64,000 nt of DNA. It comes from Lentimicrobiaceae bacterium. Lineage in GTDB: Bacteria; Bacteroidota; Bacteroidia; Bacteroidales; UBA4417. The stretch covers positions 165,630-229,629 of the forward strand of contig JBAZWY010000004.1 of the NCBI GenBank assembly GCA_041660125.1. Direction: 5' to 3'. Shown in pieces: positions 24,578 through 46,785 of this stretch (positions are counted from its first letter, which is position 1; each line of letters starts with the position of its first letter). Position numbers and translations under genes: made by a program. Under the pieces are notes generated by a model that was not told the DNA's origin, searched no databases, and saw only the letters and a list, made by a program, of their open reading frames with translations.

Positions 24578-24615
24578 GTAATCGAAAATCATTATTGGTT
24601 TAAGTTTATTAGGGC
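24487..24615 (+). repeat. att-like direct repeat, copy A (functional 3' end of the ABC-ATPase gene plus about 35 nt downstream)
   Basis: TATTATTGTCTGTTCCAATTCGCAAAGCGAAGAACATGATTTTTGTACGCAATCCATTGTGATTGATGACTATAAGAAGATTGGGAAATAG... recurs at 27317 and, from AGAACA onward, at 28484. Confidence 0.9.
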
Positions 24616-26247: not shown

Positions 26248-27378
26248 ATGAATCTATTTAAAAAATCGTTTGTTGGAGGTTTGTTTTTATTTATTTTATT
26301 AGGAGTATATAGTCAAACAAATATTGTTAATGCAGATTATTGTACATATGACCATTTTATTCCAGGAACAACTACATTACAAAATTCGACATGTACCTCA
26401 CGAACATTCGCGACTTGTACTGCTGACCCTTATTACCATTTAAATAGGATAATGATATGTAAATGGGTTACATCTGCTTCTACTCCTCCTCCCCCTGTTG
26501 TTATTCTTGAAAAAGACCCAAATAGAGTTAAAAATAAAGTTATGAAAAGTGTGGGGACAGGGGCAGGTTCGGTATATTTAAATATATTTGTAGATAAACT
26601 TACTTCGGGAGGTTGTACTTTACAAAACAATGGAGTGAATGTTGATAATTATGTATATAAGAGTGATTTTAATATAAAAAGTAAAACAGTCTCAAGTCTA
26701 ACAGCCGATGAGAATAATTTTCAGCTTAATTGTGCGGGCTCTTCTTCTCCTTCATTAACAAGTGTAATTCAAAATGTGAAAGCACAAACGGGAGTACTGA
26801 CAATACCGGCTACTTGTACGATTCCACTTGGAGGAAGTAGTTGTCCGAGTAATACCACCCTCTTTTCTTGGTCAACCACAAATCCATATTCAACTTCGAA
26901 TATGTCGTATTATACTCAAGTTAAGAATGAAGCAACTGGGTCAGCTGTCTCATCGCCAACGAATACTATGAGTTCAGTGGGAGTGGCTGTTCCTTATACA
27001 TCAGGGGGAGCAAAATATAAAATGTGGAACTATGTAGATGGAGAAAATAATACGGTCAGTATTCCAACGAATCAGCCAAGTGATTATAGTCTTAAAACAA
27101 TCATCACTAATTGTGCTTCAGGTAGTTGGAATGGAAGTATTTGTGCAGCGGCTCCTACCGTCACTTCTCCAACTTGTACAAATATTACAGCAACTAGTAT
27201 GACAGCCGGAGCAACTGTTACGTCATTAGGATATCCGACATCAATAACCCGTGGAACTTGTGTGGGAGGATATTCCCCAACAAACTGTGCAGCAGAAGGT
27301 GGAACAACGACGGGAGTATTATTGTTTGTTCCAATTCGCAAAGCGAGGAACATGATTTTTGTACGCAATCCATTGTGA
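26248..27378 (+). CDS. Secreted Cys/Ser/Thr-rich protein of unknown function; 3' end runs out of frame into att-like copy B
   Basis: N-terminal signal peptide (FVGGLFLFILLGVYSQ), many Cys, a PPPP linker, AT-rich codons. The last ~20 aa (LLFVPIRKARNMIFVRNPL) are read from the duplicated ABC 3' segment in another frame. Confidence 0.6.
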   Translation: MNLFKKSFVGGLFLFILLGVYSQTNIVNADYCTYDHFIPGTTTLQNSTCTSRTFATCTADPYYHLNRIMICKWVTSASTPPPPVVILEKDPNRVKNKVMKSVGTGAGSVYLNIFVDKLTSGGCTLQNNGVNVDNYVYKSDFNIKSKTVSSLTADENNFQLNCAGSSSPSLTSVIQNVKAQTGVLTIPATCTIPLGGSSCPSNTTLFSWSTTNPYSTSNMSYYTQVKNEATGSAVSSPTNTMSSVGVAVPYTSGGAKYKMWNYVDGENNTVSIPTNQPSDYSLKTIITNCASGSWNGSICAAAPTVTSPTCTNITATSMTAGATVTSLGYPTSITRGTCVGGYSPTNCAAEGGTTTGVLLFVPIRKARNMIFVRNPL

Positions 27379-27418
27379 TTGATGACTATAAGAAGAGTGG
27401 GAAAAAGTAAAAATAGTT
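27317..27418 (+). repeat. att-like direct repeat, copy B (continues at 27511-27535 after a GC-rich insert)
   Basis: About 95 nt nearly identical to 24487-24580. In the ABC frame it still encodes IIVCSNSQSEEHDFCTQSIVIDDYKKSGKK*. Confidence 0.9.
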
Positions 27419-28483: not shown

Positions 28484-28579
28484 GAGAACACGATTTTTGC
28501 ACGCAATCCATTGTGATTGATGACTATAAGAAGAGTGGGAAATAGTTAATGGAAAATAGTCAATAGAAAATAGTTTGGG
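28484..28579 (+). repeat. att-like direct repeat, copy C (last ~60 nt of the ABC gene plus downstream tail)
   Basis: AGAACACGATTTTTGCACGCAATCCATTGTGATTGATGACTATAAGAAGAGTGGGAAATAG plus a GAAAATAGT... tail. Shares the AGAGTGGG variant with copy B. Confidence 0.88.
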
Positions 28580-32930: not shown

Positions 32931-33968
32931 TTAACTCTCTGTTTGCCTGATTTTCAATAAAAACGCGGGGCTTCTTTCAACTATATAAATAACAAGCATC
33001 CCGGCAAGTAAAGTGCCCAATGAAGAAAGCACCACGATAATCCATATAATAGGGTATGCTTTCCGCTCGGCTTTGTACGCATTTTCAACAATAAACTTTT
33101 GAGGAATCTCCTCGTATGCGTCCATTTTTGCTTCCTCGTACCTGGCTTTGATGTAGCTCAATTGTTTCTTCTCATTTACAAGTGCATCGCGGATTGAAAC
33201 ATAAGGTCCTCCATATATTGCCAATACTTTTAACTTCTCTTCCAGCGCATGAATTCCCCGCGTATTCCCTTTGGCAATCTCCATGGCAAGCTGTCGGTTC
33301 ATCATTTCGGCCTGCGACTCATAATCCTGAACTCCCAGTTTCCTGAGCCGGGTTAATGAATCTTCCATTACCGCTATCTGCTGCTGTTGCGAAAGATACT
33401 CAGCCTCTACAATTTTAAACCCTTTCATGGCACGCTCTTTTTGCATGTCGTTTTTTACCGAATCGAGCAAAACAGCAATTTCATCGGCCATATCTGCAGC
33501 CATTTGAGGGTCTTTATCTAGTACCGATATTTCTACGGCCATAAATTCAGTCCGTTTAAAAGTAATATTCGAATTGAATTGAGTGTAAAGACGAGTTTGA
33601 TAATAGCGTTCTCCAGGGCGAATCCCATAATGGTCGGCTAATTTAAACTTACTTATAACCTTGTCCCTGATCCTGTTCGAGTTTAATATCTGCAACATCT
33701 GCTCAGTTTGTTCATCTACGCCATATTCGAGAATATCCTGTTTTGCACTTGTATTTTCATTGAGCAGCGACTTTGAAACGGAGTTACTCGAAGCCGGATA
33801 CAGTATTACTGTTGACCTGTACAAGGGAGCAATAAAAATTGGCGATGAAAATAAAGCTGAAAGTATAGCAGCCGATAAGCCTAAAACAAGCAAGGTTTTA
33901 CGCCACTTATAAAGAAATATAGCAACTTTAAATGAATCAGTATAGCTGTTCGTGGAGTTATTCAACAT
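32931..33968 (-). CDS. Wzz-like polysaccharide chain-length determinant protein (paralogue)
   Basis: Same topology as the neighbour. Start set at the internal MLNNSTNSY (33968) by analogy with the paralogue; the ORF is open to 34130. Confidence 0.68.
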   Translation of the reverse strand: MLNNSTNSYTDSFKVAIFLYKWRKTLLVLGLSAAILSALFSSPIFIAPLYRSTVILYPASSNSVSKSLLNENTSAKQDILEYGVDEQTEQMLQILNSNRIRDKVISKFKLADHYGIRPGERYYQTRLYTQFNSNITFKRTEFMAVEISVLDKDPQMAADMADEIAVLLDSVKNDMQKERAMKGFKIVEAEYLSQQQQIAVMEDSLTRLRKLGVQDYESQAEMMNRQLAMEIAKGNTRGIHALEEKLKVLAIYGGPYVSIRDALVNEKKQLSYIKARYEEAKMDAYEEIPQKFIVENAYKAERKAYPIIWIIVVLSSLGTLLAGMLVIYIVERSPAFLLKIRQTES

Positions 33969-34148
33969 GGGATCAACCTCGGTATTATAGCTGGCAAAGG
34001 TAGGAAAATCTGTATAAAAAGCAATTGGTGAAAGAAACCGTAGCTCAATAATATCGTATGCGTATGCAGATTCATTTTCTTTTCTGATCGTTTCTCTGTT
34101 CGCGGAACTTTGTAACGCGTGCGGGTACATTTGTTACTACCGAAGGAA

Positions 34149-34757
34149 CATTGACTGAAGCAGGATTTACAGGATTTAAGGATTTACAAAATTAGGATTT
34201 GGGTGGTATTTGGGATTAAAGAGCAACTTGTATTGGAGACTTTGACTTCCAAAATTGATTAATAAACCCAAAGGGAAATCATAAGCCACAGTATAATTTT
34301 TTGCCTGGGCAATATTCACATCTTCAAGATTAACAAGGGCTTTCAATTCAACTACTACTTTTTCTTCAACCACAAAATCTGCCCTGCGAGAACCAACTTC
34401 TATATCCTCGTAATAAACGGTTTGTTCCTTCTCCCTTTGAAAAGCCAGGCCAGCTCTCGCAAATTCGATAGCCAGGCACCTCTGATAAATCACTTCCTGA
34501 AAACCCGGACCCATCGTGTTGTGAACCTTTATTGCGCAACCAATTATTTTATATGTCAGATCATCCTTCTCCATACCGCTAATTTACAGTTTCCCTTTAA
34601 CTCTTCTTAATTCTTCTACACTTTTTTAAAAAATCCTGTAAATCTATAAATCCTGTAAATCCTGATTCTGACAATTTAGTAATTGTTTTTCAAAGAACGT
34701 GAAGCAAAACTATTTTTTTTATTTGTACCGGTGCTGATTGCAAATTAGCGCCAGCGG
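34149..34757 (-). repeat. GxxExxY module, direct-repeat copy 1 (~600 bp: gene plus flanking inverted 8-mer arrays)
   Basis: Near-identical to 36138-36748. GGATTTAC units at 34155-34200 and inverted GTAAATCC units at 34631-34668 flank the gene. Confidence 0.9.
34176..34574 (-). CDS. GxxExxY protein (PD-(D/E)XK-like, PDDEXK_3 family)
   Basis: 132 aa. Motif GPGFQEVIY (GxxExxY) and the core RADFVVEEKVVVELK. Confidence 0.85.
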   Translation of the reverse strand: MEKDDLTYKIIGCAIKVHNTMGPGFQEVIYQRCLAIEFARAGLAFQREKEQTVYYEDIEVGSRRADFVVEEKVVVELKALVNLEDVNIAQAKNYTVAYDFPLGLLINFGSQSLQYKLLFNPKYHPNPNFVNP

Positions 34758-34807
34758 GGTAAAACCCTTTTTGTGGAGCATTACCAAAAGACAAATATAA
34801 CACCACC

Positions 34808-35113
34808 TTAACTTGAAAAGAAAATTTCAGGAAAAAATAAAATGATTAGAGACCATGATATAAATGATAAATAGAATATAAGGATAAAGATAAAGGACCA
34901 AATTATAAGATTTTTCTCCACCGTATCAAGTGAATTGTATAATTTGAACATTCCTACTACTCTTCTAAGGGGTATGTTCGATTTTTTTTTGTTTACATAT
35001 TTTGCATCATATTTCGTGAAGATTATATCTAATTTATTTTTATTTATATTTAAGAATGTAACAGAAATGACTGGTGGTAAAATTGCTATAAAAAATTGCA
35101 GAACAATGTTCAT
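34808..35113 (-). CDS. Small membrane protein, candidate immunity protein for the orphan Rhs tip
   Basis: 101 aa, very AT-rich, with N- and C-terminal hydrophobic segments. Starts 19 nt after the orphan toxin stop. Confidence 0.55.
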   Translation of the reverse strand: MNIVLQFFIAILPPVISVTFLNINKNKLDIIFTKYDAKYVNKKKSNIPLRRVVGMFKLYNSLDTVEKNLIIWSFIFILIFYLSFISWSLIILFFPEIFFSS

Positions 35114-35132
35114 GATTTTAATTATTTAATTG

Positions 35133-36140
35133 TTAACGTCTACCTGGTCTTATCCAGAAATCTGGTGAAGGGCTTTCAAAGAGTAAAGTATAAGAGTAAT
35201 AATAACCATAAATAGCAGTACCTGGAATTCCAATATTTGCACCAACACCAGAATATTTATCTCCTATACCACCCATACCACCAGTTTCAGAAGAATTTCC
35301 AAAAACTTCCCAACCAAGTCCTAATTGCCACATTAAGCCTTGAGAAGCCCCGCCAAAGTCTGCAAGATGAAAATTATTAGATAAACGAGACACACCCATT
35401 CCTGCTGTTGCACCACCTCCAACAACTCCTCCAAAAGTTAAATATAAGCTTGTATTACCATAACTATCAGAGACAGCACCAATATCTATCATGATTCCTA
35501 AGAGCCCAAATGCAGCTGCAGCATTGAAAGCAGAAACAGCAAGCCCATACTTGCCAGGTGGGTCGCCGTCTCCTAAATCACCTCCCAAATCGCCTTCAAA
35601 CATTAAACCATACCCTATATTACTGGCTGCGGCTAAAGCTTTATTATCTTCATAAGCTTTTTGCTGATTATAATTAACTCTCCATTGGTCAAGAAGAGCT
35701 TGTGCATTATAGGAATTAGGCAAGATATAATTGTTATATACAGTCGCATAAGGTACAACATCCCCTGTAGCGATATCAATGTAAGTTCCATTATTACTTA
35801 CACAGGTATATCCCTGAGAGCCCGGTGTTGGGTCATAATGTAATGGTGTTGCTCCAGCGGACCAACCACCATTACCACCCGAAAAGCTTGGTGAATAAGA
35901 TACCCAACTACTTCCGGTATTTTTCATATAACTTCCACGATACCAAAAACCTCCACCATCATAGTCATATATGCCTTCCATTTTTGCAAGAAATGTATTC
36001 CCACTCGGATCCGTGTACTTCAGCGGGTTATTCATACAATAGCTATATCTGTTGTAGCTTTGAGTATAACCGGGTGCTTGTACAAAAGCATCCGGGCTTA
36101 GTACACGGCCAATTACCGGGTCGTACATACGGCCATTCAT
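35133..36140 (-). CDS. Orphan Rhs C-terminal toxin cassette (core-end stub plus divergent Gly-rich tip)
   Basis: Starts MNGRMYDPVIGRVLSPDAF...NRYSYCMNNPLKYTDPSGN, the last 47 aa of an RHS core. Includes a 35-nt stretch (36094-36128) identical to 38345-38379 of the full-length gene. A 288-aa unrelated Gly-rich tip follows. Confidence 0.8.
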   Translation of the reverse strand: MNGRMYDPVIGRVLSPDAFVQAPGYTQSYNRYSYCMNNPLKYTDPSGNTFLAKMEGIYDYDGGGFWYRGSYMKNTGSSWVSYSPSFSGGNGGWSAGATPLHYDPTPGSQGYTCVSNNGTYIDIATGDVVPYATVYNNYILPNSYNAQALLDQWRVNYNQQKAYEDNKALAAASNIGYGLMFEGDLGGDLGDGDPPGKYGLAVSAFNAAAAFGLLGIMIDIGAVSDSYGNTSLYLTFGGVVGGGATAGMGVSRLSNNFHLADFGGASQGLMWQLGLGWEVFGNSSETGGMGGIGDKYSGVGANIGIPGTAIYGYYYSYTLLFESPSPDFWIRPGRR

Positions 36141-36748
36141 TGTCTGAAGCAGGATTTACAGGATTTTAGGATTTACAGAATTAGGATTGGGGTGGTATTT
36201 GGGATTAAAGAGCAACTTGTATTGGAGACTTTGACTTCCAAAATTGATTAATAAACCCAAAGGGAAATCATAAGCCACAGTATAATTTTTTGCCTGGGCA
36301 ATATTCACATCTTCAAGATTAACAAGGGCTTTCAATTCAACTACTACTTTTTCTTCAACCACAAAATCTGCCCTGCGAGAACCAACTTCTATATCCTCGT
36401 AATAAACGGTTTGTTCCTTCTCCCTTTGAAAAGCCAGGCCAGCTCTCGCAAATTCGATAGCCAGGCACCTCTGATAAATCACTTCCTGAAAACCCGGACC
36501 CATCGTGTTGTGAACCTTTATTGCGCAACCAATTATTTTATATGTCAGATCATCCTTTTCCATTATGCTAATATATAGTTTCCCTTTAATTCTTCTTAAT
36601 TCTTCTACACTTTTTAAAAAAATCCTGTAAATCCATAAATCCTGTAAATCCTGATTCTGACAATTAAGCAATTGTTTTTTCAAAGAACGTGAAGCAAAGC
36701 TAAACATTTTTTATTTGTATATGCAGGGATTGCAAATCAGCGCCTGCG
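36138..36748 (-). repeat. GxxExxY module, direct-repeat copy 2
   Basis: See copy 1. Its low-coordinate edge abuts, and overlaps by 3 nt, the ATG of the orphan Rhs stub. Confidence 0.9.
36156..36563 (-). CDS. GxxExxY protein (second copy)
   Basis: Identical to the 34176-34574 product except for the extreme C-terminus (NPNSVNPKIL versus NPNFVNP). Start set at MEKDD. Confidence 0.85.
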   Translation of the reverse strand: MEKDDLTYKIIGCAIKVHNTMGPGFQEVIYQRCLAIEFARAGLAFQREKEQTVYYEDIEVGSRRADFVVEEKVVVELKALVNLEDVNIAQAKNYTVAYDFPLGLLINFGSQSLQYKLLFNPKYHPNPNSVNPKIL

Positions 36749-36788
36749 ATGGGACTTCTTTCAAAAAAAATGTAGTTGCTTTGTAAGC

Positions 36789-36815
36789 AAAAAGCCCGGT
36801 CTTGCCGGGCTTTTT
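36789..36815 (-). terminator. Bidirectional Rho-independent terminator after the Rhs-immunity pair
   Basis: AAAAA-GCCCGG-TCTTG-CCGGGC-TTTTT. Confidence 0.75.
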
Positions 36816-36822
36816 GATTATG

Positions 36823-37329
36823 CTATACTCTGTGATTCATAAATACAAAGCTACCAATTACAAAAAAGAAAAAGAACAAAATCACCCCTAAGCTTATCCA
36901 AGCCCATAGTTTCTTATCTGCTTTCTCCATCTTTTCAAAGTCCCTGAAATAACTAAGATATTTATTATGCCTAAATAATAGAAAGTAGTTAAATAACAAA
37001 GTTATAGGCAATACAAGAATAAATATATTAGCGTTAAAATAACTAATCCTTAACAAACCGATGTAAATAAAGCCTATTCCAAAACAAAATAGAACTATCA
37101 GTAAAATCATCAATCCCCCAGCCCTAAAGCTACTAATTCCAGTATCAGACTTTTCAAATGATTTATTTAGTTCTTCGACAGGATTATCAACACCTATTTT
37201 TGCAAACCTTCTTTTAGAAAGATTGAGCTTATATAATAGTAATGCCGGATTGATTTTATTAAATAATAAGTGAAGTTTATAATCACCTTTGTACGCGAAA
37301 TAATAAATTAAATTCCAAAATCTTTCCAT
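36823..37329 (-). CDS. Polytopic membrane protein, candidate cognate immunity protein of the Rhs toxin
   Basis: 168 aa with 3-4 TM segments (GGLMILLIVLFCFGIGFIYIGLL, IFILVLPITLLFNYFLLF, LWAWISLGVILFFFFFVIGSFVF). Starts 6 nt after the Rhs stop. Confidence 0.6.
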   Translation of the reverse strand: MERFWNLIYYFAYKGDYKLHLLFNKINPALLLYKLNLSKRRFAKIGVDNPVEELNKSFEKSDTGISSFRAGGLMILLIVLFCFGIGFIYIGLLRISYFNANIFILVLPITLLFNYFLLFRHNKYLSYFRDFEKMEKADKKLWAWISLGVILFFFFFVIGSFVFMNHRV

Positions 37330-37335
37330 AAAATT

Positions 37336-40300
37336 CTAATATGAAGAAAAATTATTTACAACTGTTTCACCAAGTTTTGAGCCTCCCCAGCCTCCAACTA
37401 CTCCACCAATCACACCTCCAATTACTGCCCCTGGTATAGCTCCAACGCCTCCAAACCATACACCAATAGCAGCTCCAATTTCTGCTCCTGTCCATGCTCC
37501 GGTAATTCCAAGAGATGATTGGGCTAAAGCCATTTGAGTATTAGCTCCATAAGTATGTCCATCTTGCTGCCATCCATTAGTCACATTAATTCCGCCAATC
37601 ACAAAGCTTACTCCAAGAGACCCATATCCTATTCCTTTTCCCCAATTTGTGGTATTGTATGTTTTAATTCCAAAACCACCATTAAATATTTTTCCTGCGG
37701 CATTGGGTTTTGTATAAAACTTAGGACTAAATCCATTGGAATTATTCATTCTAAAATTACCTCCAAGATTACTCATTCCTGCCCCAAAACCTCCTATTCC
37801 ATTGTTTGTATGGTCAGTTGCTGTTAACCAACCCCCTCCACCTTGGGCTCCACTCACAGCAACCCATTGCATTATTGTAGATGGGCCACCTAGCAGTATT
37901 GCTTTACCCTCGGGAGTATCAATCCAGGTTTTAGCAGAGTTATTATATTGGGTCGCAACTGGAACATAATAGCCCCCATTCTCCCTTATTTTTTCAATAC
38001 TAATCAACCCCTGCCGCCACTGACTTATAAAATCTGAATTACTGGCTAAACTTTGGGCAATACTATATGCCCCGGGCCCATACATATTGTTAAAAGAACT
38101 CGCACTCCCAATCATAAAGTTACCATATTCGTCCCGTAGAGCATCACTCCAGTGGTTTCCTGAGCCAGGTCCAATTGATCCGCCATACCCTGGTCCAAAG
38201 CTACCCTGATAATATGTGTGAGTCATCCCCCAGGAAGGACGCTCGTAATAGCCACTCGGATCCGTATATCTAAGTGGATTATTAAGGCAATAACTATACC
38301 GGTTGTAGCCCTGTGTAAAGTTGGGTGATGATACAAATGGATCAGGGCTTAGTACACGGCCAATTACCGGGTCGTACATCCTTCCGTTCATATTTATTAA
38401 GCCAAAGCCATCCAAATGCTCATGGCCGGTATAGCCACGGGCTATTAGGCGCGGGGCTTTTACATTATAATCAGTCCAATCGGTGGGGTTTCTTCTTCTT
38501 CCCCAGGCATCGTAGCTGTAACGCTCGGCTAATTTGCGGTCCTGTTTAAATAAAGCGGTAATTGAGCCCTGGCGGTCGGTACATACATAATACAGGGTGT
38601 CTTTGGTAACAGTACCTGTTTTCCATATAATATAAACAGCAACCAGGCCTGTGCCACCCATTATATAATGTATTTTCTTGGTGGTTGCCGAAGTTGAGTC
38701 TTTTTCGTAGCTACCCGCATAAAAATTTGTGGTAGTATTATTCAGCGTATCCGTACAAACGGTTTTTACACGTTGTTCGTCGGGGCCGTAAGTAATGGAA
38801 TAAAGTACAGGTTTCTTGTACTGTTGTATTGTATTAACCTTGTTAAACTTGGTGTAGGTTATATTCTGCAAGGGCGGGGTTACGCTGCCAGTGATTTTAG
38901 TAACTGTTGTAAAAGCGTGCACTTTGGCGGGGTCGTATGAATATGTACCACCATCGTATTTAGAAGTAATGTTTCCATTGCCTGAATAGGCAATATTTTG
39001 TGCTGTCAATGTTTTATATTTAGTACTGGTAATCCTGTCGAGGTTATCGTAGGTAAAGTTTTCGTACTGGTGGGTAATGCTGTCCTTGCGGAACATTACA
39101 TTGCCGACATTAGGATGGTTAACGGTATAGGTTTCGAATTGCATGCCTCCGTCAGTTATTACCTGCGACAGCTGATCCATATCATAAGTGTAATTTGTGA
39201 AAAGCCCGTTGCCAAATACAGTTCGTAACGGCATACCATGCGAGGATATATCATAGAGTTGCCATAATGTATAATTATCGCTAGTACGGTTTACTTTAAC
39301 TAACGTACCCTTGTCGAATACGTTGGTAACGGCAAACCCGGTTTCAGGATAAGTAATTTTGGTATTATTACCAAATATATCGTAGGTGTAGGAGGTAGTA
39401 AATTTAGACGCCTGGCCGGGAATTGTTTGCACTACGGTTGCAGGCCATCCATAAGCCGCATCGTAGGTAAACTCCTGCTTTGCGCCATTGGCACCCGTAA
39501 TTGAAGCTAGTTGCCCTATTGCCCTGCCGGAAGTATTATATACATAGGTGGTTAAATCGCCGCCTAGTGTTTTCTGCGTTACCCTGCCAATGGCATCATA
39601 AAGCAAAGTATCTTTATTGCCGTTGGCATCGGTTTGCGAGGCAAGTTCGCCAAAAGCATTGTACGTATAGCGGGTGGTGCCTGCATCGGGGTCGGCAAGG
39701 GTTAGCTGGCGGCCATAGGCATCGTAGGTTATGGTGGTTACCGCGCCTGCAGCGGTAATCTGCCAGGGTTGGCCGCTGCTGTGGTACAGGTAGGCAATGC
39801 TGCCCCCATTATCGATAGCCGCTGTAACGTTGCCAAGGGCATTCACGGTTTTGGTTGATGTACGGTTGGCCACATCGGTGTTGGTAACTGTTTTACCGCT
39901 ATAGCTTGATTTGTTGGTCATAGCGCGGTCGTCTATTTCGGTGTTACGGCCATAAGCGTCGTACTTATACTTTACCGGTTGAGGCGTTTCACCTGTATAG
40001 TAAGGCAAGGATTGTGAGGTTAACATGCCTGCTTTTCCATAGGGAGTAGCCGGTACATAGTTAACATCGGTATATATCGTTTTGTTGGCAAAACCGGTGG
40101 ATTCGGAACGGATGGCGCGCCCGAGTATATCGTAATAAGCTTTGGTTGTTGGCTTGCCTGGCACAAAAATAGTACTGCTATAAAAGGTTCCTGTTGGATC
40201 GCCGGTTTTGGACCAGGCCAGGCGTTGGGTAATGGCGTATCCCTCGGGCATCAGGGTTGTATCCATACGACCGAATTCATCATAACGGTAAGTAGTAATC

Positions 40301-43300
40301 AACCCGTTTGCCGCGCTGTCGCTAAGTACTACTCCATATTTATAATCATATGTCCGTGATGACTTATAGCCCACCGGGTTAATGGTACGGACAGGCATAC
40401 GGTATTTGGGGTCGTAATCCGTCCTGCTGATACGAGAGGTGATACCGATAGCTGAAATGGTAATACTAACCGGCAAACCATAACTATTAAAAGCATAAGT
40501 ACTGGTTATTGGTTTAGCCTGGTCAGCAAAATCAATAGTAGAGGTGCAATTACCCTTTGTGTCGTAGGTAAATGATTTTTTTGTTGCAAAAGCCGGCTGC
40601 CCGGTATAAACCGAGGATACGATGCTGCTGTTTAGCCTATTCTTATAAATATATCCTCCCTTGAATATATAATCATTGGTAGTAGTTACCACGGCATCGG
40701 ACCCAAATGTAGCTTTGTCGGTTAACATATTGCCCGCATTATCAAACGTATAATCGTGTGTAACAGTGGTATTGGTTACCAGGTCGTTGCTGATATCCTG
40801 AAGCGGATAACTGTAATACCTTTTCGTACCTGTTGACAGCGTTGTAAAAGTAAATGTTTTTTTATTAGCTGCTACATTTGCCACATATGAATTTACGGCA
40901 AGAGGATACCTGAAAAAATAGGTGCTGTTGATGCCGTAGCATGATTCGGTTTTTATATTCGAAAGGTTATTTACGCTTACCAAGGTGTCGAAACCCAGGT
41001 ATCCTTTGCCCTGCAAATGGCTGCGAGCGCCTTTGTAACTGAAATCGGTAACGGAATATACATAATTACCGCCGTTCATGTAACCCGCGTGGGTAGTTAA
41101 GGTGGAAACTACAAATTGGGCTGGTTGAATGTTGATTACAGGAAAGATAGCTATTTTCCCTTTGGTGTATTTGCCGGTACCTGCCGCTGCCAGCGAAATA
41201 TAGGAGAATCCTGCCGCCTGGTTTAGCCCGTTGCTGATGGTTTGGACCCGGTATTTCTGCAATCGGGCATAATTTTTATAAAGTATTCCGTTAAAATTAG
41301 CAGTAACCGGCCAAGAGTTGGGGTACAACATTAGCGCGGCATCTTTAATGCCATCTCCGTCAATATCCGCAACATCAATTGATACCGGCTTATTGGTAAG
41401 TCCATCATCAATTTTTTGAAATCCATATAAACTTAATTCGCCATCAAACTTTGAATAATATTTTACAAAACCAGGACTTTCGTTCAATACGCCATTTCCA
41501 TCGTTAACAATACCAGGAGGACATGTAGCTAGTTGAGAGTAATAGTCAAGAATATCATCCCTGCCATCACCATTGAGGTCCGAAATATAAAAATCGCTTT
41601 CTATATTAGCCACAGTGCCGTCCAGTTCTACATCAGTTCGTGTGTTTTTGGGGCCAACCAGCCCAATTCCGGTACTTAAATAGACCGAAAATTTAAAATC
41701 ATTTGCATTACGTATAATTATATCAGTTTTACCATCCCCGTTAAAATCACCGGTTTTGAGGTTCGCTGAATTGGCCCCTGATAAAGTCCCATTCACAAGG
41801 ATGGTAAATGACAAATTGGATTCGTTTAATTTGAATACTGTATAGGTACTGTCCTTCAATACAAAAATTTCATCAAGGCCATCCCCGTCGAAATCAATTA
41901 TTTCAACTCTCTGAGGGGTATCAAAATTGGGGTTCGCGCTTAACGAAAAACCTGTTACTATACTGAAGTTATTATCCGGATTAATAATCAGCAAATCGGT
42001 TTTGCCATCGCTATTGAATTGACCTGGTATGATTTTAACGCTGGTGGTGGGTAAATAAATATCATCGGTAACATTTCCCCTTACCAGGGTATTATTGATA
42101 ATTGAAAAATTGAAAGCCCAATAATAGGTATAATAATAGGTGTTACAACATTGGCCAGGATTGACAGATTGTATCACATTAAGCACAGTGCTATCAGCTG
42201 TTTTCAAATTCATACTGTTTAATTCCAAAGCCGCATTAACAACATTTCCGATAGCAGTAGTGTCTGTTTGCTGTATTGCACCCACAGGTGTTTCGCATGG
42301 ATAGCATTCAGTTACAGTAGTGGTTTCTGTTGTTTTAAGTAGAATTTCGTTTTTACCATCATTGTTTATATCGGCGATATACGCCCCATCGCAATTTTTA
42401 ACACCAATATTTCCTGATGAAGTGTTTGTTATGGTTGTTCCGTTTGATTGATAATAGTACCACTGCGTATAATACGTAGCTGAGGATAACTTACGTAAAA
42501 CAAACTGATCCGTAAGCCCGTCGCCATTAAGATCACTAAAATAGGATTTTGTAACATAACCCGGATAACTACCGGTGATAGAAATTTCAGAAACCGTATT
42601 ATTATCCGGACCCCAATTTATCACAGTAGGATTTATCGCTTTGCTAACACCATTTAAAGTTCCGGTTTCCTGTATTTGCGCAAGCCTGCTTTTTTCAAAA
42701 TCCAAATTAGGAGTTGCAACAGGCAGATAGGTGAAGGAATAGTGCCTTACAGGTACCGTCTCGCTGATCATATCGATACCTGTCAACCGTTTGGTTTGAC
42801 TGATGCTTATGCCACCCACGTAATACATGATCTTATCGGGCCTGTCCTCGTAAGTAAACTTCAGCACATTGTAAGGCGCCAGGGCAGGATTTGTTGTGTT
42901 ATTCCCGGTATATTCAATCCTGTCGATATAAGAGTCGCCATTAATTTCGGTATAGTAATATTTGATATAGTTGCCATTAATATCTGTCATTTGGTTAAGC
43001 CTCCAAATTAACGCTTTTGAAGAGCCTGGAGCTTCGATTCTTGAATCAGCAGTTTCACCATAGGCAAGCTTCATTCCATCTTTTGTAGTAATATTAAAAG
43101 AGTTTGGCCCAATGCTTGAATTAGGGTTAAGCGAAACAATATAAGCAAATCTTGCTGATTCGGTAGCATATTCGGCTCCATTACTGCCACCGGTATAAGC
43201 CGTTATACGGTTTCCATCCCATTCTAACTGGTCATCGTTTTGCAGGTCAACTCCTTTGATTATACCATCGTGATAATAATCCTTTGGCGCGCGCGTAATA

Positions 43301-43581
43301 GCAGATAAGCCGGCTATATTCCACCCAACACCCAGAACGCCATTTGATACCTGACTATTGTACTCGATTGAAATATTGGGTTGCAACCCCGCCGTACCGG
43401 GCGAAACAAATATGGGTATGGAGTAGGTTGCCGCCCCGTTTCCGTTAACACTGGCACCGCCGGGAGTTGCGCCTACCATAAGGGTAGTATCGAGTTGACG
43501 AATCGGCAATGTAACCTGGGCTGATAAAGAGATAAAGGAAGAAACTGCGATGATAAATAAAAGGTTATAACGGGCTCTCAT
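37336..43581 (-). CDS. SpvB/TcB-N - FG-GAP/VCBS - YD-repeat - RHS-core polymorphic toxin (fused BC-type cocoon) with Gly-zipper C-terminal tip
   Basis: 2081 aa. Signal peptide. SpvB-type N-terminus (YSIPIFVSPGTAGLQPNISIEYNSQ...GVGWNIAGLS). At least 7 DxNGDGxxD loops. Many YD repeats. Core end GYTGHEHLD...MNGRMYDPVIGRVLSPDPF...RYTDPSGY at aa 1731-1778. 303-aa tip encoded by nt 37339-38247. Confidence 0.92.
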   Translation of the reverse strand: MRARYNLLFIIAVSSFISLSAQVTLPIRQLDTTLMVGATPGGASVNGNGAATYSIPIFVSPGTAGLQPNISIEYNSQVSNGVLGVGWNIAGLSAITRAPKDYYHDGIIKGVDLQNDDQLEWDGNRITAYTGGSNGAEYATESARFAYIVSLNPNSSIGPNSFNITTKDGMKLAYGETADSRIEAPGSSKALIWRLNQMTDINGNYIKYYYTEINGDSYIDRIEYTGNNTTNPALAPYNVLKFTYEDRPDKIMYYVGGISISQTKRLTGIDMISETVPVRHYSFTYLPVATPNLDFEKSRLAQIQETGTLNGVSKAINPTVINWGPDNNTVSEISITGSYPGYVTKSYFSDLNGDGLTDQFVLRKLSSATYYTQWYYYQSNGTTITNTSSGNIGVKNCDGAYIADINNDGKNEILLKTTETTTVTECYPCETPVGAIQQTDTTAIGNVVNAALELNSMNLKTADSTVLNVIQSVNPGQCCNTYYYTYYWAFNFSIINNTLVRGNVTDDIYLPTTSVKIIPGQFNSDGKTDLLIINPDNNFSIVTGFSLSANPNFDTPQRVEIIDFDGDGLDEIFVLKDSTYTVFKLNESNLSFTILVNGTLSGANSANLKTGDFNGDGKTDIIIRNANDFKFSVYLSTGIGLVGPKNTRTDVELDGTVANIESDFYISDLNGDGRDDILDYYSQLATCPPGIVNDGNGVLNESPGFVKYYSKFDGELSLYGFQKIDDGLTNKPVSIDVADIDGDGIKDAALMLYPNSWPVTANFNGILYKNYARLQKYRVQTISNGLNQAAGFSYISLAAAGTGKYTKGKIAIFPVINIQPAQFVVSTLTTHAGYMNGGNYVYSVTDFSYKGARSHLQGKGYLGFDTLVSVNNLSNIKTESCYGINSTYFFRYPLAVNSYVANVAANKKTFTFTTLSTGTKRYYSYPLQDISNDLVTNTTVTHDYTFDNAGNMLTDKATFGSDAVVTTTNDYIFKGGYIYKNRLNSSIVSSVYTGQPAFATKKSFTYDTKGNCTSTIDFADQAKPITSTYAFNSYGLPVSITISAIGITSRISRTDYDPKYRMPVRTINPVGYKSSRTYDYKYGVVLSDSAANGLITTYRYDEFGRMDTTLMPEGYAITQRLAWSKTGDPTGTFYSSTIFVPGKPTTKAYYDILGRAIRSESTGFANKTIYTDVNYVPATPYGKAGMLTSQSLPYYTGETPQPVKYKYDAYGRNTEIDDRAMTNKSSYSGKTVTNTDVANRTSTKTVNALGNVTAAIDNGGSIAYLYHSSGQPWQITAAGAVTTITYDAYGRQLTLADPDAGTTRYTYNAFGELASQTDANGNKDTLLYDAIGRVTQKTLGGDLTTYVYNTSGRAIGQLASITGANGAKQEFTYDAAYGWPATVVQTIPGQASKFTTSYTYDIFGNNTKITYPETGFAVTNVFDKGTLVKVNRTSDNYTLWQLYDISSHGMPLRTVFGNGLFTNYTYDMDQLSQVITDGGMQFETYTVNHPNVGNVMFRKDSITHQYENFTYDNLDRITSTKYKTLTAQNIAYSGNGNITSKYDGGTYSYDPAKVHAFTTVTKITGSVTPPLQNITYTKFNKVNTIQQYKKPVLYSITYGPDEQRVKTVCTDTLNNTTTNFYAGSYEKDSTSATTKKIHYIMGGTGLVAVYIIWKTGTVTKDTLYYVCTDRQGSITALFKQDRKLAERYSYDAWGRRRNPTDWTDYNVKAPRLIARGYTGHEHLDGFGLINMNGRMYDPVIGRVLSPDPFVSSPNFTQGYNRYSYCLNNPLRYTDPSGYYERPSWGMTHTYYQGSFGPGYGGSIGPGSGNHWSDALRDEYGNFMIGSASSFNNMYGPGAYSIAQSLASNSDFISQWRQGLISIEKIRENGGYYVPVATQYNNSAKTWIDTPEGKAILLGGPSTIMQWVAVSGAQGGGGWLTATDHTNNGIGGFGAGMSNLGGNFRMNNSNGFSPKFYTKPNAAGKIFNGGFGIKTYNTTNWGKGIGYGSLGVSFVIGGINVTNGWQQDGHTYGANTQMALAQSSLGITGAWTGAEIGAAIGVWFGGVGAIPGAVIGGVIGGVVGGWGGSKLGETVVNNFSSY

Positions 43582-43620
43582 AAAGTAAATATTTATTGTT
43601 TATAATAGGGATTACAATAA

Positions 43621-43691
43621 GGTTTAGGTTTAGGTTTAGGTTGAGGTTGAGGTTGAGGTTGAGGTTGAGGTTGAGGTTGAGGTTGAGGTTA
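43621..43691. repeat. Heptamer tandem array (GGTTTAG x3, GGTTGAG x7)
   Basis: Direct observation. Followed by a partially complementary segment CTCAACC...CTTAACCTCAA at 43694-43730. Confidence 0.9.
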
Positions 43692-43745
43692 AGCGCATAT
43701 ATACTCAACCTATACCTTAATCTTAACCTCAATAAAATAGTAGAA

Positions 43746-44174
43746 TTACTCCTTTAATACTTTTAACACATGTTGCGTGTCCGGTAATTTGATTTGCAGT
43801 ATATATAATCCATTAGGCACATTGCTCAGGTCGCATTTAATAGTTTGCTGGCCGGTATAAACGGCATTGGAAATAAACCTGCCGCTGGCATCGTGAATAG
43901 TACATGTAACTTTTGAATCCTCTGTTAAGCCGGGGCATTCGATGGTTACCAGCCCTTTGGTAGGATTTGGATAGAGTTTAAACTCGCGGCCTTCGTCGGT
44001 AACAACCACAGCTTCTTTTGATTCAATGTTTGCCGGATCAACCTGGCTGCTTTTTAGCAGGGTTACCTTTGTACGATTACCGGCAGCGTCATATACATAG
44101 GTATATTGCTGGGCCAAAAGTTGGGATAATGAAATCAGAAGAAGGCATGCACTGAGAAGTAAATGTTTTATCAT
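43746..44174 (-). CDS. Small secreted protein: signal peptide, a single YD repeat, and a T9SS type-A C-terminal sorting domain
   Basis: 142 aa. LLAQQYTYVYDAAGNRTKV (YD motif directly after the predicted signal cleavage site). C-terminal LYPNPTKGLVTIE...GLYILQIKL...VLKVLKE (Por_Secre_tail pattern). Confidence 0.8.
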   Translation of the reverse strand: MIKHLLLSACLLLISLSQLLAQQYTYVYDAAGNRTKVTLLKSSQVDPANIESKEAVVVTDEGREFKLYPNPTKGLVTIECPGLTEDSKVTCTIHDASGRFISNAVYTGQQTIKCDLSNVPNGLYILQIKLPDTQHVLKVLKE

Positions 44175-44407
44175 AGCAATATTTTTTAAGGTTAAAATGC
44201 AGGACCCAGGTTAAAATAGTTTTATTATAGGCCTTAATCCAGATAAATAGAAAAGGTAATACGGTTTTTAGCCTGAGTTATTAATAAATTATTAAAAATT
44301 ATGACTTATTCAAACCCAGCCCTATTGTCCCCATTGATTTTTAAGCATAAAACATTTTCAACAAATAAAAAATTAACCCTTTTAAATAATCAATTAATAA
44401 CTTTTGC

Positions 44408-44415
44408 TATATTTG
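44408..44415 (+). promoter_or_regulatory. Candidate -7 box TATATTTG
   Basis: TAnnTTTG match about 105 nt upstream of the 44520 ORF. Confidence 0.35.
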
Positions 44416-44519
44416 TAAAACTTATTCATGCACCTTTACTCTATTGTAGAATTTTCATTGTTAAAATTGAATTGTAAAAACATCTAACCTATTTTTATCA
44501 CTTAAAAAATCTTATAACT

Positions 44520-44990
44520 ATGACTGACAATCGCATTAATTTTTCGATTCCCGATGCCGATCAGACTAGAATTGATGAGGCATTTACAACAATTAACGAT
44601 ATCCTGAAACCTTTCATGGTAGTACTTTCGGATACAGATCGCAAAACGCTCCCCAAAATGGCTGATGCCACCCTTCCTTTTGTTGAAAAAGTTGCATCTT
44701 ATGCTGTTACACATCCCCAGTTTAAACCCGACTATGTAAATGCTGAAGAACTGGCTACAGATGTGAACGGATTTAAAACAAGCAACCGTATTCTTGCATC
44801 TGCATCCCAACTTGTCCGCTTGCTCGAAGATATTTCGATTTTGTCCGGCTCCGAGGCATATTCGTCGGCTTTAAGTTATTACCGTAACGTTAAGGTTCAG
44901 TCGCGTGATGGCCGCCCCGGCGCTAAAACTGTTTGCGATGATTTACAACAACGCTTTGAGGGGCAGGGAAAACGAGCACCTGCCAAATAA
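44520..44990 (+). CDS. Hypothetical protein (156 aa, helical, no recognised motif)
   Basis: Clean ORF followed by a strong terminator. Function unknown. Confidence 0.6.
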   Translation: MTDNRINFSIPDADQTRIDEAFTTINDILKPFMVVLSDTDRKTLPKMADATLPFVEKVASYAVTHPQFKPDYVNAEELATDVNGFKTSNRILASASQLVRLLEDISILSGSEAYSSALSYYRNVKVQSRDGRPGAKTVCDDLQQRFEGQGKRAPAK

Positions 44991-45026
44991 TCAATCGCTT
45001 ACAACATGTATTAAGGTGCATTTATT

Positions 45027-45064
45027 AGCGGAGGGGGGCTTGATTAGAGCCCCTCCTGCTTTTT
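45027..45064 (+). terminator. Rho-independent terminator
   Basis: AGCGGAGGGGGGC-TTGATTAGA-GCCCCTCCTGCT followed by TTTT. Confidence 0.7.
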
Positions 45065-45108
45065 ATATAAACTTACTGCGTAAAAAAATAAACTGGTACA
45101 GCTATAAG

Positions 45109-45240
45109 ATGAATTAGTTTGAGTAAAAAATGAACTAATTCGAGTTAAAATTGAATTAGTTCAGGTAAAAGATAAATTAGTACTGATAAAAGACGAATTA
45201 GTGCTGATAAAAGACGAATTAGTTCTGATAAAAAATGAAC
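45109..45240. repeat. Six tandem 21-bp units (consensus AYGAATTAGTTCTGATAAAAR), iteron-like
   Basis: atgaattagtttgagtaaaaa / atgaactaattcgagttaaaa / ttgaattagttcaggtaaaag / ataaattagtactgataaaag / acgaattagtgctgataaaag / acgaattagttctgataaaaa / atgaac. Confidence 0.9.
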
Positions 45241-45339
45241 CTCCTATCGCACGTTTGTAGCATTTGCGGCACTGGAACAGAGGTTCCATTTAAAAGCAAA
45301 ATCTCGTTTCCATTTCCCTGAATAAAATTTAATATAGCA

Positions 45340-46785
45340 TTATTCACTCTTCATCAACCTGATAAACCCTCCAATGCTTATTAATCTCAATATAAAAGCC
45401 CAGATTACTGAAGCGAAACCTGCCGCCAATAAAGCAATGCGCCAATCCCACGCCAAATTCCTTGCAAAAAGATTTATTAAGACTACTCCTGCCGCAAAAA
45501 ACACCAATGTAAAAATATACCTCCAGTTGATGGTAAATTTAAATATTCGCTGGGCAATGGCTACCTGTATAATGGCTGTAGCAAATTGAGTGACCAGGCT
45601 TGCATACGCTGAACCGACAGCCATCAAACGAGGAATGAGGATAAAATTAAGGCTGATATTTATAATCATGCCGGTAAGAGCCATAATATTAAGTGCTTTT
45701 AAACTTCCGTTGGCTGTGAGCAATGTGCCAAAAATATACGTTGCCGAAATCGGGATAAACCCGATGATCAGGAACACGAATACCTTTTGCGCTTCATGAA
45801 CCTGCCCAACATACAGCAATTCCATGATCTGGTTGCTAAAGAAGGAGGAAGTGGTGGCAATGATCATCGAGATCGTAAAAATAATTGTAAACGACAATTT
45901 AACCATCCCTTCCACAGGGGATTTATCTTTAATAAGCCTGGCAAAAATCGGGATAAGAATAACTGAAAAGAGATACGCAATCATATTAACTGCATCCAGC
46001 AACCTGAATGCCTTTGCATAAATATCAACTTGCCCGGTACCAATACCTTTGGGCAGCAAACGTTCGAGCATAACCGAATCGATACGGTTGTAAAACGACA
46101 TGAGCAGCACCAGCAAAGCAAAAGGGAAACTCTGCTTTATAATATGAATAAAAAATTTCGGATCCCATTGCAGGCGTTTAAAAGCTGCTTTTTTCATCAC
46201 GATTAACATGGCGACTAAAGCCGTGAGCAGGTATGCAAGCGTTTGTGCATACACAAACCAAATAATCTGGAAATGCTCGCTGGTTATATGTCCCCATAGC
46301 AACACACTGCATATCAGTATCATTAAAACCCTGTCGAGCACCGAAATAGTGCTGTCGATGGCAAATAATAACAAGCCCGAAATATTGGAGCGCAGGTAGA
46401 GTATAAACGATATAAGAAACTGATTAATTCCAAGGAAAACAAGAAAATAGAAATGCCGTGAATCATAACCGATGATAGCAGCGACACTAAAAATGACTAC
46501 AAAATAAATAACTGCCAAAACCAGGCGAAGTACGGCAATACCCGAGAAATGTTTGTTTAACAGGTGATTGTTTTGGGCTATGTTCCTGTTATTGTAGTTG
46601 GTAATCCCAAAATCGAGAAGAATATTAAAAAGAAATGTGAAATTTAAAATCGTAAAATAGAAACCATATTCACCCGGAGCTGTTATATTCTGTACTGTCC
46701 GGTCGATGCCAAAAATCCAGAAGGGCTTAACCAGGAGATTAAGAAAAAGCAGGAAACCAAGGTTAGTTATAAATTTACGCTTCAT
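45340..46785 (-). CDS. wzx: Wzx-type oligosaccharide/polysaccharide flippase (MOP superfamily)
   Basis: 481 aa, about 12-14 TM helices, typical N-terminus KFITNLGFLLFLNLLVKP. Confidence 0.8.
   Translation of the reverse strand: MKRKFITNLGFLLFLNLLVKPFWIFGIDRTVQNITAPGEYGFYFTILNFTFLFNILLDFGITNYNNRNIAQNNHLLNKHFSGIAVLRLVLAVIYFVVIFSVAAIIGYDSRHFYFLVFLGINQFLISFILYLRSNISGLLLFAIDSTISVLDRVLMILICSVLLWGHITSEHFQIIWFVYAQTLAYLLTALVAMLIVMKKAAFKRLQWDPKFFIHIIKQSFPFALLVLLMSFYNRIDSVMLERLLPKGIGTGQVDIYAKAFRLLDAVNMIAYLFSVILIPIFARLIKDKSPVEGMVKLSFTIIFTISMIIATTSSFFSNQIMELLYVGQVHEAQKVFVFLIIGFIPISATYIFGTLLTANGSLKALNIMALTGMIINISLNFILIPRLMAVGSAYASLVTQFATAIIQVAIAQRIFKFTINWRYIFTLVFFAAGVVLINLFARNLAWDWRIALLAAGFASVIWAFILRLISIGGFIRLMKSE

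Follow-up and report, generated by a model that had tools for sequence, protein, structure and literature searches.

In REPIN-RAYT systems (PMC3116915, PMC5581495), a small nuclease-type gene is located between short repeats in inverted orientation, these repeats also form many gene-less intergenic palindromic doublets that are often clustered, and the gene is mostly vertically inherited and under purifying selection. These characteristics are shared by an element that occurs twice in a stretch of 64,000 nucleotides (nt) from a Lentimicrobiaceae bacterium (contig JBAZWY010000004.1, positions 165,630 to 229,629), hereafter called the window, wherein two modules bracket an orphan Rhs toxin cassette and each module carries a gene for a GxxExxY protein between two inverted repeat arms. 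However, the two systems differ in several respects. The enzyme encoded here is of the PD-(D/E)XK type (PF13366), whereas RAYT is an HUH/Y1 (IS200-like) transposase. The arms of the present element are 42 nt long, are built from 9-nt units and carry no GTAG/CGTC tag, and their sequence is not specific to a species but conserved between phyla. In addition, the GxxExxY gene is sense-oriented inside operons.

Terminal inverted repeats are also characteristic of miniature inverted-repeat transposable elements (MITEs) and their parent insertion sequences (ISs), of Correia/NEMIS and ERIC elements, and of the Rickettsia palindromic elements. As with MITE-, Correia- and ERIC-type repeats, gene-less palindromes of 70-250 bp outnumber the gene-bearing form of the element described here, they reside at co-transcribed intergenic sites, and assemblies often break there. 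Unlike MITEs and ISs, the element encodes no DDE, serine or HUH transposase, its sole open reading frame (ORF) being that for the PF13366 protein, a nuclease-fold cargo of 130 aa. Furthermore, there is no demonstrable target-site duplication and no sign of recent copy bursts. ORF-bearing 23S rRNA intervening sequences (PF05635) likewise place a small ORF within stem-forming inverted repeats of a host transcript, but the protein belongs to another family, and the arms of the present element are conserved as a motif rather than as a pairing. The element is also not found in rRNA, in that the 23S sarcin-ricin loop motif is present at none of the 80 homologous loci described below.

With these comparisons in mind, we judge the chances to be roughly even that the module is a PD-(D/E)XK nuclease gene accompanied by its cognate hairpin repeats, similar in organization to REPIN-RAYT and MITE-IS pairs, with a mechanism that we infer from the comparative analyses presented herein. 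The function of PF13366 has been given as 'unknown' (PMC3424549), and a literature search on GxxExxY, PF13366 and the arm sequences returned no account of the arms, although an earlier description may still exist. The arm-flanked GxxExxY element is widespread and, apparently, undescribed.

The GxxExxY modules of the window

An initial annotation of the window had reported two near-identical direct repeats, and alignment bears this out: the copies at 34149-34757 (609 bp) and 36138-36748 (611 bp) align with 581 matches, 27 mismatches and 4 gapped columns (95.6% identity). The coding portions had been described as identical apart from their last residues, and indeed the two GxxExxY proteins differ solely in the C-terminal tail (NPNFVNP vs NPNSVNPKIL). 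The features that form the two modules are as follows.

34149..34757, minus strand: direct repeat copy 1, comprising an 80-bp local extension, the 5' arm, the GxxExxY gene and the 3' arm
36138..36748, minus strand: direct repeat copy 2, with the layout of copy 1
34176..34574, minus strand: GxxExxY/PDDEXK_3 gene of copy 1 (132 aa), whose final codons and stop lie within the 3' arm
36156..36563, minus strand: GxxExxY/PDDEXK_3 gene of copy 2 (135 aa), identified by profile match
34632..34675, minus strand: 5' arm of copy 1, gene-strand sequence ATTGTCAGAATCAGGATTTACAGGATTTATAGATTTACAGGATT
34150..34193, minus strand: 3' arm of copy 1, the inverted-repeat partner of 34632..34675
36621..36667, minus strand: 5' arm of copy 2, the inverted-repeat partner of 36136..36182
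36136..36182, minus strand: 3' arm of copy 2, whose terminus adjoins the ATG of the orphan Rhs gene
34676..34757, minus strand: extension of ~80 bp outside the 5' arm of copy 1, ~83% identical to its counterpart in copy 2
36668..36748, minus strand: extension of ~80 bp outside the 5' arm of copy 2, the counterpart of 34676..34757

In a profile search, both genes match PF13366 PDDEXK_3 (E 1e-36; 125.8 bits vs a cut-off of 22) and TIGR04256 GxxExxY (E 2e-38; 131.3 bits vs a cut-off of 35), and thus pass the curated thresholds of the two models. A 183-aa ORF listed at the position of gene 2 was rejected as an upstream over-extension.

The arms of each pair are inverted relative to one another, are 44-47 nt in length and are 84-87% complementary. 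Thus, a GxxExxY gene does lie between inverted repeat arrays as first described, although the CAGGATTTA-type units recur with a period of 9 nt and not 8. The 15-mer GGATTTACAGGATTT, when up to two mismatches are allowed, occurs seven times in the 64 kb of the window where 0.32 occurrences are expected, and all seven reside within the four arms. In copy 1, the low-coordinate limit of the direct repeat is also the outer limit of the 3' arm. The 3' arm of copy 2 has its terminus joined straight to the orphan Rhs ATG (...TTCAGACA followed immediately by ATGAATGG), exactly where the initial annotation had placed this edge. The extension of ~80 bp on the other side of the module may harbour a promoter. 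A sigma-70 promoter scan yielded no enrichment (16 sites vs 12.7 expected), using a tool that omits organisms with other promoter types.

The expectation that the catalytic residues are intact was also borne out. Among 31 homologues, the motif G24-F-Q-E27-V-I-Y30, D66 and E76-x-K78 are invariant, and the catalytic set E27, D66, E76 and K78 is therefore complete in all of them. The predicted fold (AlphaFold2 model; predicted local distance difference test score 74, predicted template modelling (TM) score 0.72) exhibits a PD-(D/E)XK alpha-beta core. Its top matches among PDB structures are lambda exonuclease, Cas4 SSO0001, MGME1 and EcoRV, with probabilities of 0.96-0.99 and TM scores of 0.37-0.49; a sequence search of PDB with the GxxExxY protein gave no match. 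The fold and the catalytic E...D...ExK set are those of PD-(D/E)XK homing endonucleases and of the RecB, Cas4 and lambda-exonuclease nucleases, and the homing endonucleases are similarly small nucleases encoded within selfish-looking insertions. However, the resemblance in structure is weak, in the TM range just given, and the GxxExxY protein has no intron or intein host, no iron-sulphur cluster and no extra domains. The family is large, with 14,274 clusters at 50% identity when matches with E values up to 0.001 are included. Some members (P0256, P0258, P0273, P0281 and others) are ~250-277 aa in length and carry two tandem GxxExxY domains, and are therefore fused double versions of the protein.

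Arms across the GxxExxY family

Our main sample derives from a scan of one genome per species, which yielded 80 loci with homologues that are 66-87% identical and that comprise 85 gene copies. The loci span Bacteroidota, Ignavibacteriota, Cyanobacteriota, Chloroflexota, Verrucomicrobiota, Proteobacteria and other phyla. The initial annotation had proposed a discrete mini-element bounded by its arms, and had held that this proposal would fail if modules elsewhere proved to lack the inverted arrays. Instead, the arms recur around homologues in many phyla. The arm-end 16-mer TGTCTGAATCAGRATT (up to three mismatches) is present in forward orientation upstream and in reverse orientation downstream of 57 of the 85 gene copies, and is missing entirely from only 4. 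Up to 300 bp from the genes it occurs 2.04 times per kb, compared to 0.088 times per kb elsewhere in the same loci (23x).

Most close homologues carry arms of ~42 nt, (A)TTGTCTGAATCAGRATTTACAGRATT..., on both sides. The consensus is (A)TTGTCTGAATCAGRATTTACAGRATTtnAGRATTnaCAGRATT, and its outer boundary is sharp. The outer end, (A)TTGTCTGAATCAG, is conserved and contains the near-palindrome CTGAATCAG, after which four 9-nt CAGRATTnn units follow. Both arms share a near-invariant end motif, TGTCTGAATCAG, and are thus terminal inverted repeats whose ends are conserved.

The manner in which the arms vary is informative as to what is conserved. Where the consensus varies, the two arms of an element are mostly mismatched: there are 361 transversions, sense-strand G:U combinations (70) do not exceed A:C combinations (83), and both arms conform to the same consensus. 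Moreover, arms of the same element match at 29.3 of 38 positions, which is nearly equal to the 28.2 of 38 positions that match when arms of different elements are compared. Given that the variable positions are uncompensated and that matching within and between elements is so similar, it is the sequence of the arms that is conserved rather than their pairing. Such a pattern is expected of a site that a trans-acting factor reads, as with transposon ends, and not of an RNA helix maintained through compensatory substitutions.

The four R positions of the consensus switch between G and A in concert across units and arms, and are uniform in 27 of 41 elements. The GC content of the genome does not explain the arm type. 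Alignment column 117 of the protein (K vs L) was considered as a determinant of G- or A-type arms and was rejected, as it is a clade marker and the window breaks the rule.

More distant homologues of the GxxExxY protein are also associated with inverted arrays of 9-10-nt units, the sequences of which are unlike those of the close family. A homologue that scores 72 bits (L194) is flanked by ATGGGACACGGATGAACACGGA and its complement (22 nt, 95% complementary; unit ACACGGATGA), and one with 38% identity on a Bernardetia plasmid (L230) has arrays of CACAGAGA units on its two sides (28 nt, 86% complementary). The GxxExxY gene of a Treponema locus (L229) is situated between CACACGGATTCG and its complement, and a hairpin of CGCGGAT units adjoins the gene in Gemmatirosa (L231). 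In this handful of cases the repeat unit thus appears to vary with the protein subfamily, which we regard as the best argument that protein and arms belong together.

Two other arrangements were observed. On a Fusobacteria plasmid (CP102406.1; L228:1380-1950), the copies of CAGATTTAATCCGTGTACCTAT[T/C]AAAA on either side of a distant GxxExxY gene are direct and not inverted, and a Shine-Dalgarno-like AGGAGG comes 0-25 nt after each of them. Hence, the architecture of the flanks is not uniform across the family. On a Bacteroidales chromosome (OY781105.1; L046:4023-5414), three complete GxxExxY genes are arranged in tandem with a spacing of 489 bp, each followed by a reverse arm, and a fourth copy is located 3 kb upstream.

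Gene-less hairpins, operon placement and competing explanations

An unbiased scan of metagenomes for the arm pattern recovered at least 120 stretches, and gene content was assessed in the first 80. Only 8 of these 80 loci include a GxxExxY gene, and the other 72 do not. From these we obtained 75 distinct hairpins, defined as pairs of a forward and a reverse arm, which have a median length of 109 bp and are frequently arranged in tandem arrays. The hairpins are intergenic, with just one of the 75 located inside a long ORF. Of 24 hairpins, none is placed between divergent genes, and contig ends are a frequent location. No Rfam family matches the arms or hairpins, and the sole Rfam match in the window is a tRNA. 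We had considered that the stems of solo hairpins might be more perfect than those of modules with a gene, but this was rejected (76% vs 73-78%).

The Caldilineaceae chromosome OZ241379.1 (L070) has 22 arm ends in the 10 kb around a single GxxExxY gene. In the portion L070:4139-7250, gene-less hairpins of 100-165 nt are arranged in tandem on both sides, with units that are 93-97% identical and separated by 8-nt spacers. Cargo other than GxxExxY is rare between the arms, being limited to one XisH-like gene and one DDE transposase. The former encodes a 138-aa protein that takes the place of GxxExxY between a forward and a reverse arm (L203:2448-3546), and XisH (PF08814) is also encountered twice among the downstream neighbours of GxxExxY genes. 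The latter is a 305-aa ORF, likewise between a forward and a reverse arm (L148:171-1345), and is probably an IS that inserted secondarily into a hairpin.

In the explanation that we favour, the two modules are members of a widespread family of small palindromic elements defined by two inverted arms of ~42 nt. Most copies are gene-less hairpins of ~110 bp in transcribed intergenic DNA, and a minority carry in the loop a gene for a GxxExxY PD-(D/E)XK nuclease of 130-135 aa. The nuclease is predicted to act on the arms, presumably by recognising the repeat units and cutting at or near the arm terminus. Such cutting would maintain or spread both its own cassette and the gene-less hairpins, in parallel with RAYT and REPIN or with an autonomous IS and its MITEs, albeit by means of another enzyme fold. 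The cassette usually leaves no room for a promoter of its own, and the gene would be expressed via read-through transcription from the host operons in which it is sense-oriented.

This orientation bias is strong, in that the upstream gene is co-directional in 70 of 77 instances, and in 53 of 71 this holds for both neighbours. Arm boundaries also tend to coincide with those of the adjacent ORFs. The stop codon of the upstream gene is located -10 to +7 nt from the start of the 5' arm at 16 of 34 loci, with 7 using the TGA of the arm itself, and the first ATG of the next gene is found -3 to +15 nt from the end of the 3' arm at 15 of 24 loci, with exact abutment in 5. For example, in a type I restriction-modification (R-M) operon represented in ten samples, the 3' end of hsdS contains the 5' arm, and GACA, the last bases of the 3' arm, immediately precedes the ATG of hsdR. 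Since such placement is common in the family, the position of the copy 2 edge on the ATG of the Rhs stub is typical of these elements and not specific to Rhs.

Placement of this kind is also what might be expected if the cassette operates at the RNA level, an explanation that we consider unlikely. The arms would then serve as a long-range stem in polycistronic mRNA that loops out the ORF, such that insertion into an operon is tolerated. Either RNase III, as with 23S rRNA intervening sequences and Correia elements, or the GxxExxY protein could cut the stem. Another possibility is that ribosomes completing the upstream gene melt the stem and expose the downstream start codon, such that translational coupling is kept. 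The sense-orientation bias within operons and the clustering of stop and start codons at arm ends, which includes copy 2 of the window, are consistent with these ideas. The stem is present in both the minimum-free-energy and centroid folds, gene-less hairpins avoid divergent intergenic regions, and tRNA-splicing endonucleases are among the weak Foldseek matches of the protein. However, the placement of stops and starts could merely reflect selection against gene disruption in tight operons. The whole-module fold has a z-score of just -1.6, the absence of an Rfam match also argues against an RNA element, and the statistics presented above, with G:U not above A:C, variable positions uncompensated and pairing within elements barely above that between elements, are not those of a conserved stem.

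The neighbours of the gene suggest a different possibility. Type I R-M operons hold about a quarter of the GxxExxY loci, which represents an enrichment: HsdS is the upstream neighbour at 15 of 69 loci and HsdM at 4, and HsdR-type domains are encoded downstream at ~9 of 72. GxxExxY might therefore be a host defence or stress nuclease that accompanies type I R-M and comparable systems, with the arrays being operator- or iteron-like regulatory sites or leftovers and not the ends of an element. The occurrence of HsdM, Eco57I/MmeI, Fic and XisH proteins among the neighbours, the long vertical persistence of the gene under purifying selection and its weak similarity to Cas4 would agree with such a role. 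Regardless, we find this improbable. Most loci are in housekeeping operons, such as those with ilv/leu genes, which recur, or with aconitase, acyl-CoA dehydrogenase and others. PADLOC gave no significant match to a defence family, the only one being to Cas4b with an E value of 0.008, and IMG/VR viral contigs, when searched with the family alignment and a distant homologue as queries, contained no relatives. A defence role would also leave unexplained the approximately ten-fold surplus of gene-less hairpins with the same arms and their tandem arrays.

Inheritance of the module could be followed where orthologous copies are available. Modules between leuC and leuD (three Sphingobacteriales loci) and after ilvC (three loci) are 76-81% identical, compared to 72-87% for their flanks. 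Because these modules diverge in step with the flanking genes, they are old, vertically inherited and under purifying selection. Identities above 75% between phyla imply that horizontal transfer has occurred as well.

Several observations weigh against the hypothesis of a nuclease that acts on its own repeats. There is no clear target-site duplication, as the flanks are usually palindromic AT or AATT with no longer direct repeat, and these outer AT or AATT nucleotides might just as well belong to the inverted repeat. A pair of filled and empty sites for a single module was not found, and only an entire 11.3-kb island (described below) is polymorphic. The arms necessarily form a long-range RNA stem and may therefore have a role at the RNA level, and the enrichment in type I R-M operons could instead signal a defence function. 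Furthermore, identical proteins (P0053 and P0084) each reside in one stable context across many samples. The orthologous copies are old, and active transposition, if any, is rare. Finally, the G/A state of the units is uniform per element and yet does not strictly follow the protein clade, with the window being an exception, which weakens the case for co-specificity of protein and DNA within the subfamily.

The Rhs island, the origin of the two copies and the meaning of the element

The segment between the two modules contains an Rhs-core stub, a divergent C-terminal toxin and a small downstream ORF, and it is situated after a main rhs-immunity pair. In these respects it conforms to known orphan Rhs and contact-dependent inhibition cassettes. 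However, bracketing by GxxExxY modules is not a known feature of such cassettes, and was found neither at the 80 homologous loci nor at L223 and L224, which carry a related orphan Rhs array. The pertinent features are as follows.

35133..36140, minus strand: orphan Rhs C-terminal toxin ORF (335 aa), which begins with an Rhs core stub of ~50 codons (TIGR03696)
38252..38402, minus strand: stub-homologous segment in the full-length Rhs gene, where homology begins at an internal ATGAAC
34808..35113, minus strand: small ORF (101 aa) after the orphan toxin, putative immunity gene 2, assigned by position only, with no family match
36823..37329, minus strand: small ORF (168 aa) after the full-length Rhs gene, putative immunity gene 1, assigned by position only
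36784..36820, no strand assigned: GC-rich hairpin with T/A runs, terminator-like, between immunity gene 1 and module 2
37336..43581, minus strand: full-length SpvB/FG-GAP/RHS toxin gene (2081 aa)
34074..45340, no strand assigned: 11.3-kb Rhs island with both modules, absent from related contigs L221 and L222

TIGR03696 matches residues 2-47 of the orphan, and the DNA homology to the main Rhs gene extends for ~150 bp and ends at a DPSG motif. The island comprises genes for a protein with a type IX secretion system tail and for the SpvB/FG-GAP/RHS toxin, immunity gene 1, module 2, the orphan, immunity gene 2 and module 1. Two related contigs, L222 (98% DNA identity) and L221 (~95%), are without everything from ~34074 to 45340, and carry in its place 24 bp (L222) or 143 bp (L221) between a Polysacc_synt gene and wzz. 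The polymorphic unit is therefore the whole island. It follows from the same two contigs that the border is at ~34074, which is 75 bp past the end of module 1, and the earlier suggestion that the edge of copy 1 marks the island border must be abandoned because module 1 lies inside the island. A Lentimicrobiaceae metagenome-assembled genome (MAG) encodes a protein with 100% identity to the orphan toxin, and exact-protein look-ups with both GxxExxY copies, the immunity-2 ORF and the orphan toxin returned no contig on record.

Two further observations concern the vicinity. The wzz ORF (399 aa, from 34130) is over-extended, as 345 aa is the length of most of the homologues listed, the 97%-identical P0122 among them, and the island border falls within this supposed N-terminal extension (33968-34130). 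A repeat of ~75 bp, GAACATGATTTTTGTACGCAATCCATTGTGATTGATGACTATAAGAAGAGTGGGAAATAG, is present three times in intergenic DNA near lpx and efp genes of the window (24517-24604, 27330-27411 and 28486-28560), and also matches the related contigs L221 and L222.

The initial annotation had suggested that the module might be linked to Rhs or other toxin tips, either as a selfish insertion or as a portable homology block dedicated to the turnover of polymorphic-toxin cassettes. Local features can be cited for such a device: exactly one orphan toxin-immunity unit lies between the two copies, copy 2 has its terminus fused precisely to the Rhs stub, and an identical core amid diverged flanks reveals past recombination between copies. 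At the level of the family, however, the link does not survive comparison. A tblastn search with the window Rhs core found no match within 5 kb at any of the 80 loci, and the neighbours there are type I R-M and housekeeping genes. In addition, any direct repeat would do equally well. In L223, a Bacteroidales MAG, and also in L224, two orphan Rhs-type toxin ORFs (339 and 363 aa in L223) occur with no GxxExxY gene, and a direct repeat of ~140 bp (L223:5870-6010 and L223:8310-8460; GGCTAC[A/G]TTTTTTTGAAGAAGTTTTAA...GCCCGCATGGGAGTTT) precedes each orphan. This looks like a different inter-cassette repeat in the bracketing role. P0242 was rejected as a second orphan, given that it is the tip of an Rhs gene truncated by a contig end. 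A strain with the predicted deletion of 34758-36137 was not found, the sole comparators (L221 and L222) being without the entire island. The shared flank that does not belong to the element, considered next, also implies that the copies are not independent insertions. Thus, we regard a dedicated Rhs device as very improbable, and the location of the module beside an Rhs toxin cassette looks incidental and not like a trait of the family. Our overall order of preference places the REPIN-RAYT- and MITE-like explanation first, then an operon-neutral cassette acting at the RNA level, then a defence gene with operator repeats, and lastly a dedicated Rhs device.

The two copies in the window share ~80 bp beyond the 5' arm (34676-34757 and 36668-36748), and this extension has no counterpart at any other locus. 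The direct repeat therefore does not represent two transpositions of an arm-bounded element, and the statement that the element had 'inserted twice' cannot be retained. The repeat is instead the product of segmental duplication or recombination. Differences between the copies are concentrated toward both ends of the repeat. A core of 368 bp (34201-34568) is 100% identical, whereas there are 4 differences in the 52 bp to its left and 23 in the 189 bp to its right. The flanks of the core differ by 8-17%, and the extension by ~17%. An identical core with diverged ends indicates that gene conversion or a crossover has probably taken place between copies that were formerly more divergent. A role as a homology block is thus plausible locally, although not at the level of the family.

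We propose that the module in the window is a passenger of the 11.3-kb Rhs island, and that the unit formed by the 80-bp flank and the module was doubled by recombination or segmental duplication tied to the stacking of orphan cassettes. As a first step, the module terminus may have been joined illegitimately to an internal Rhs-core ATG, which would have created the stub junction. Homologous exchange anchored in the Rhs core and in the extension plus module could then have stacked or replaced toxin tips. The copies would have exchanged sequence since, and ordinary homologous recombination would be able to delete or amplify the 1,989-bp orphan unit.

For Rhs biology the outcome is mostly negative, in that the module is no general device for toxin cassettes, although the 610-bp homology in this window appears to have already recombined. 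More broadly, and with less assurance than we attach to the nuclease and its cognate repeats, we tentatively suggest that GxxExxY proteins and their cognate hairpins with units of 9-10 nt form an unrecognised cross-phylum class, the PD-(D/E)XK counterpart of REPIN-RAYT, in which the arms also neutralise the effect of the element on its host operon. Such neutrality might be achieved via placement from stop to start codon, via the RNA stem, or possibly by excision of the cassette from the transcript. The abundant hairpins of ~110 bp would account for many of the breaks in assemblies of Bacteroidota, Cyanobacteria and other groups. The tie between gene and arms gives a very large family that lacks a functional assignment a concrete candidate substrate, namely the arm or the hairpin. 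If the proposal is true, the function of this orphan family would be to act on its own flanking repeats.

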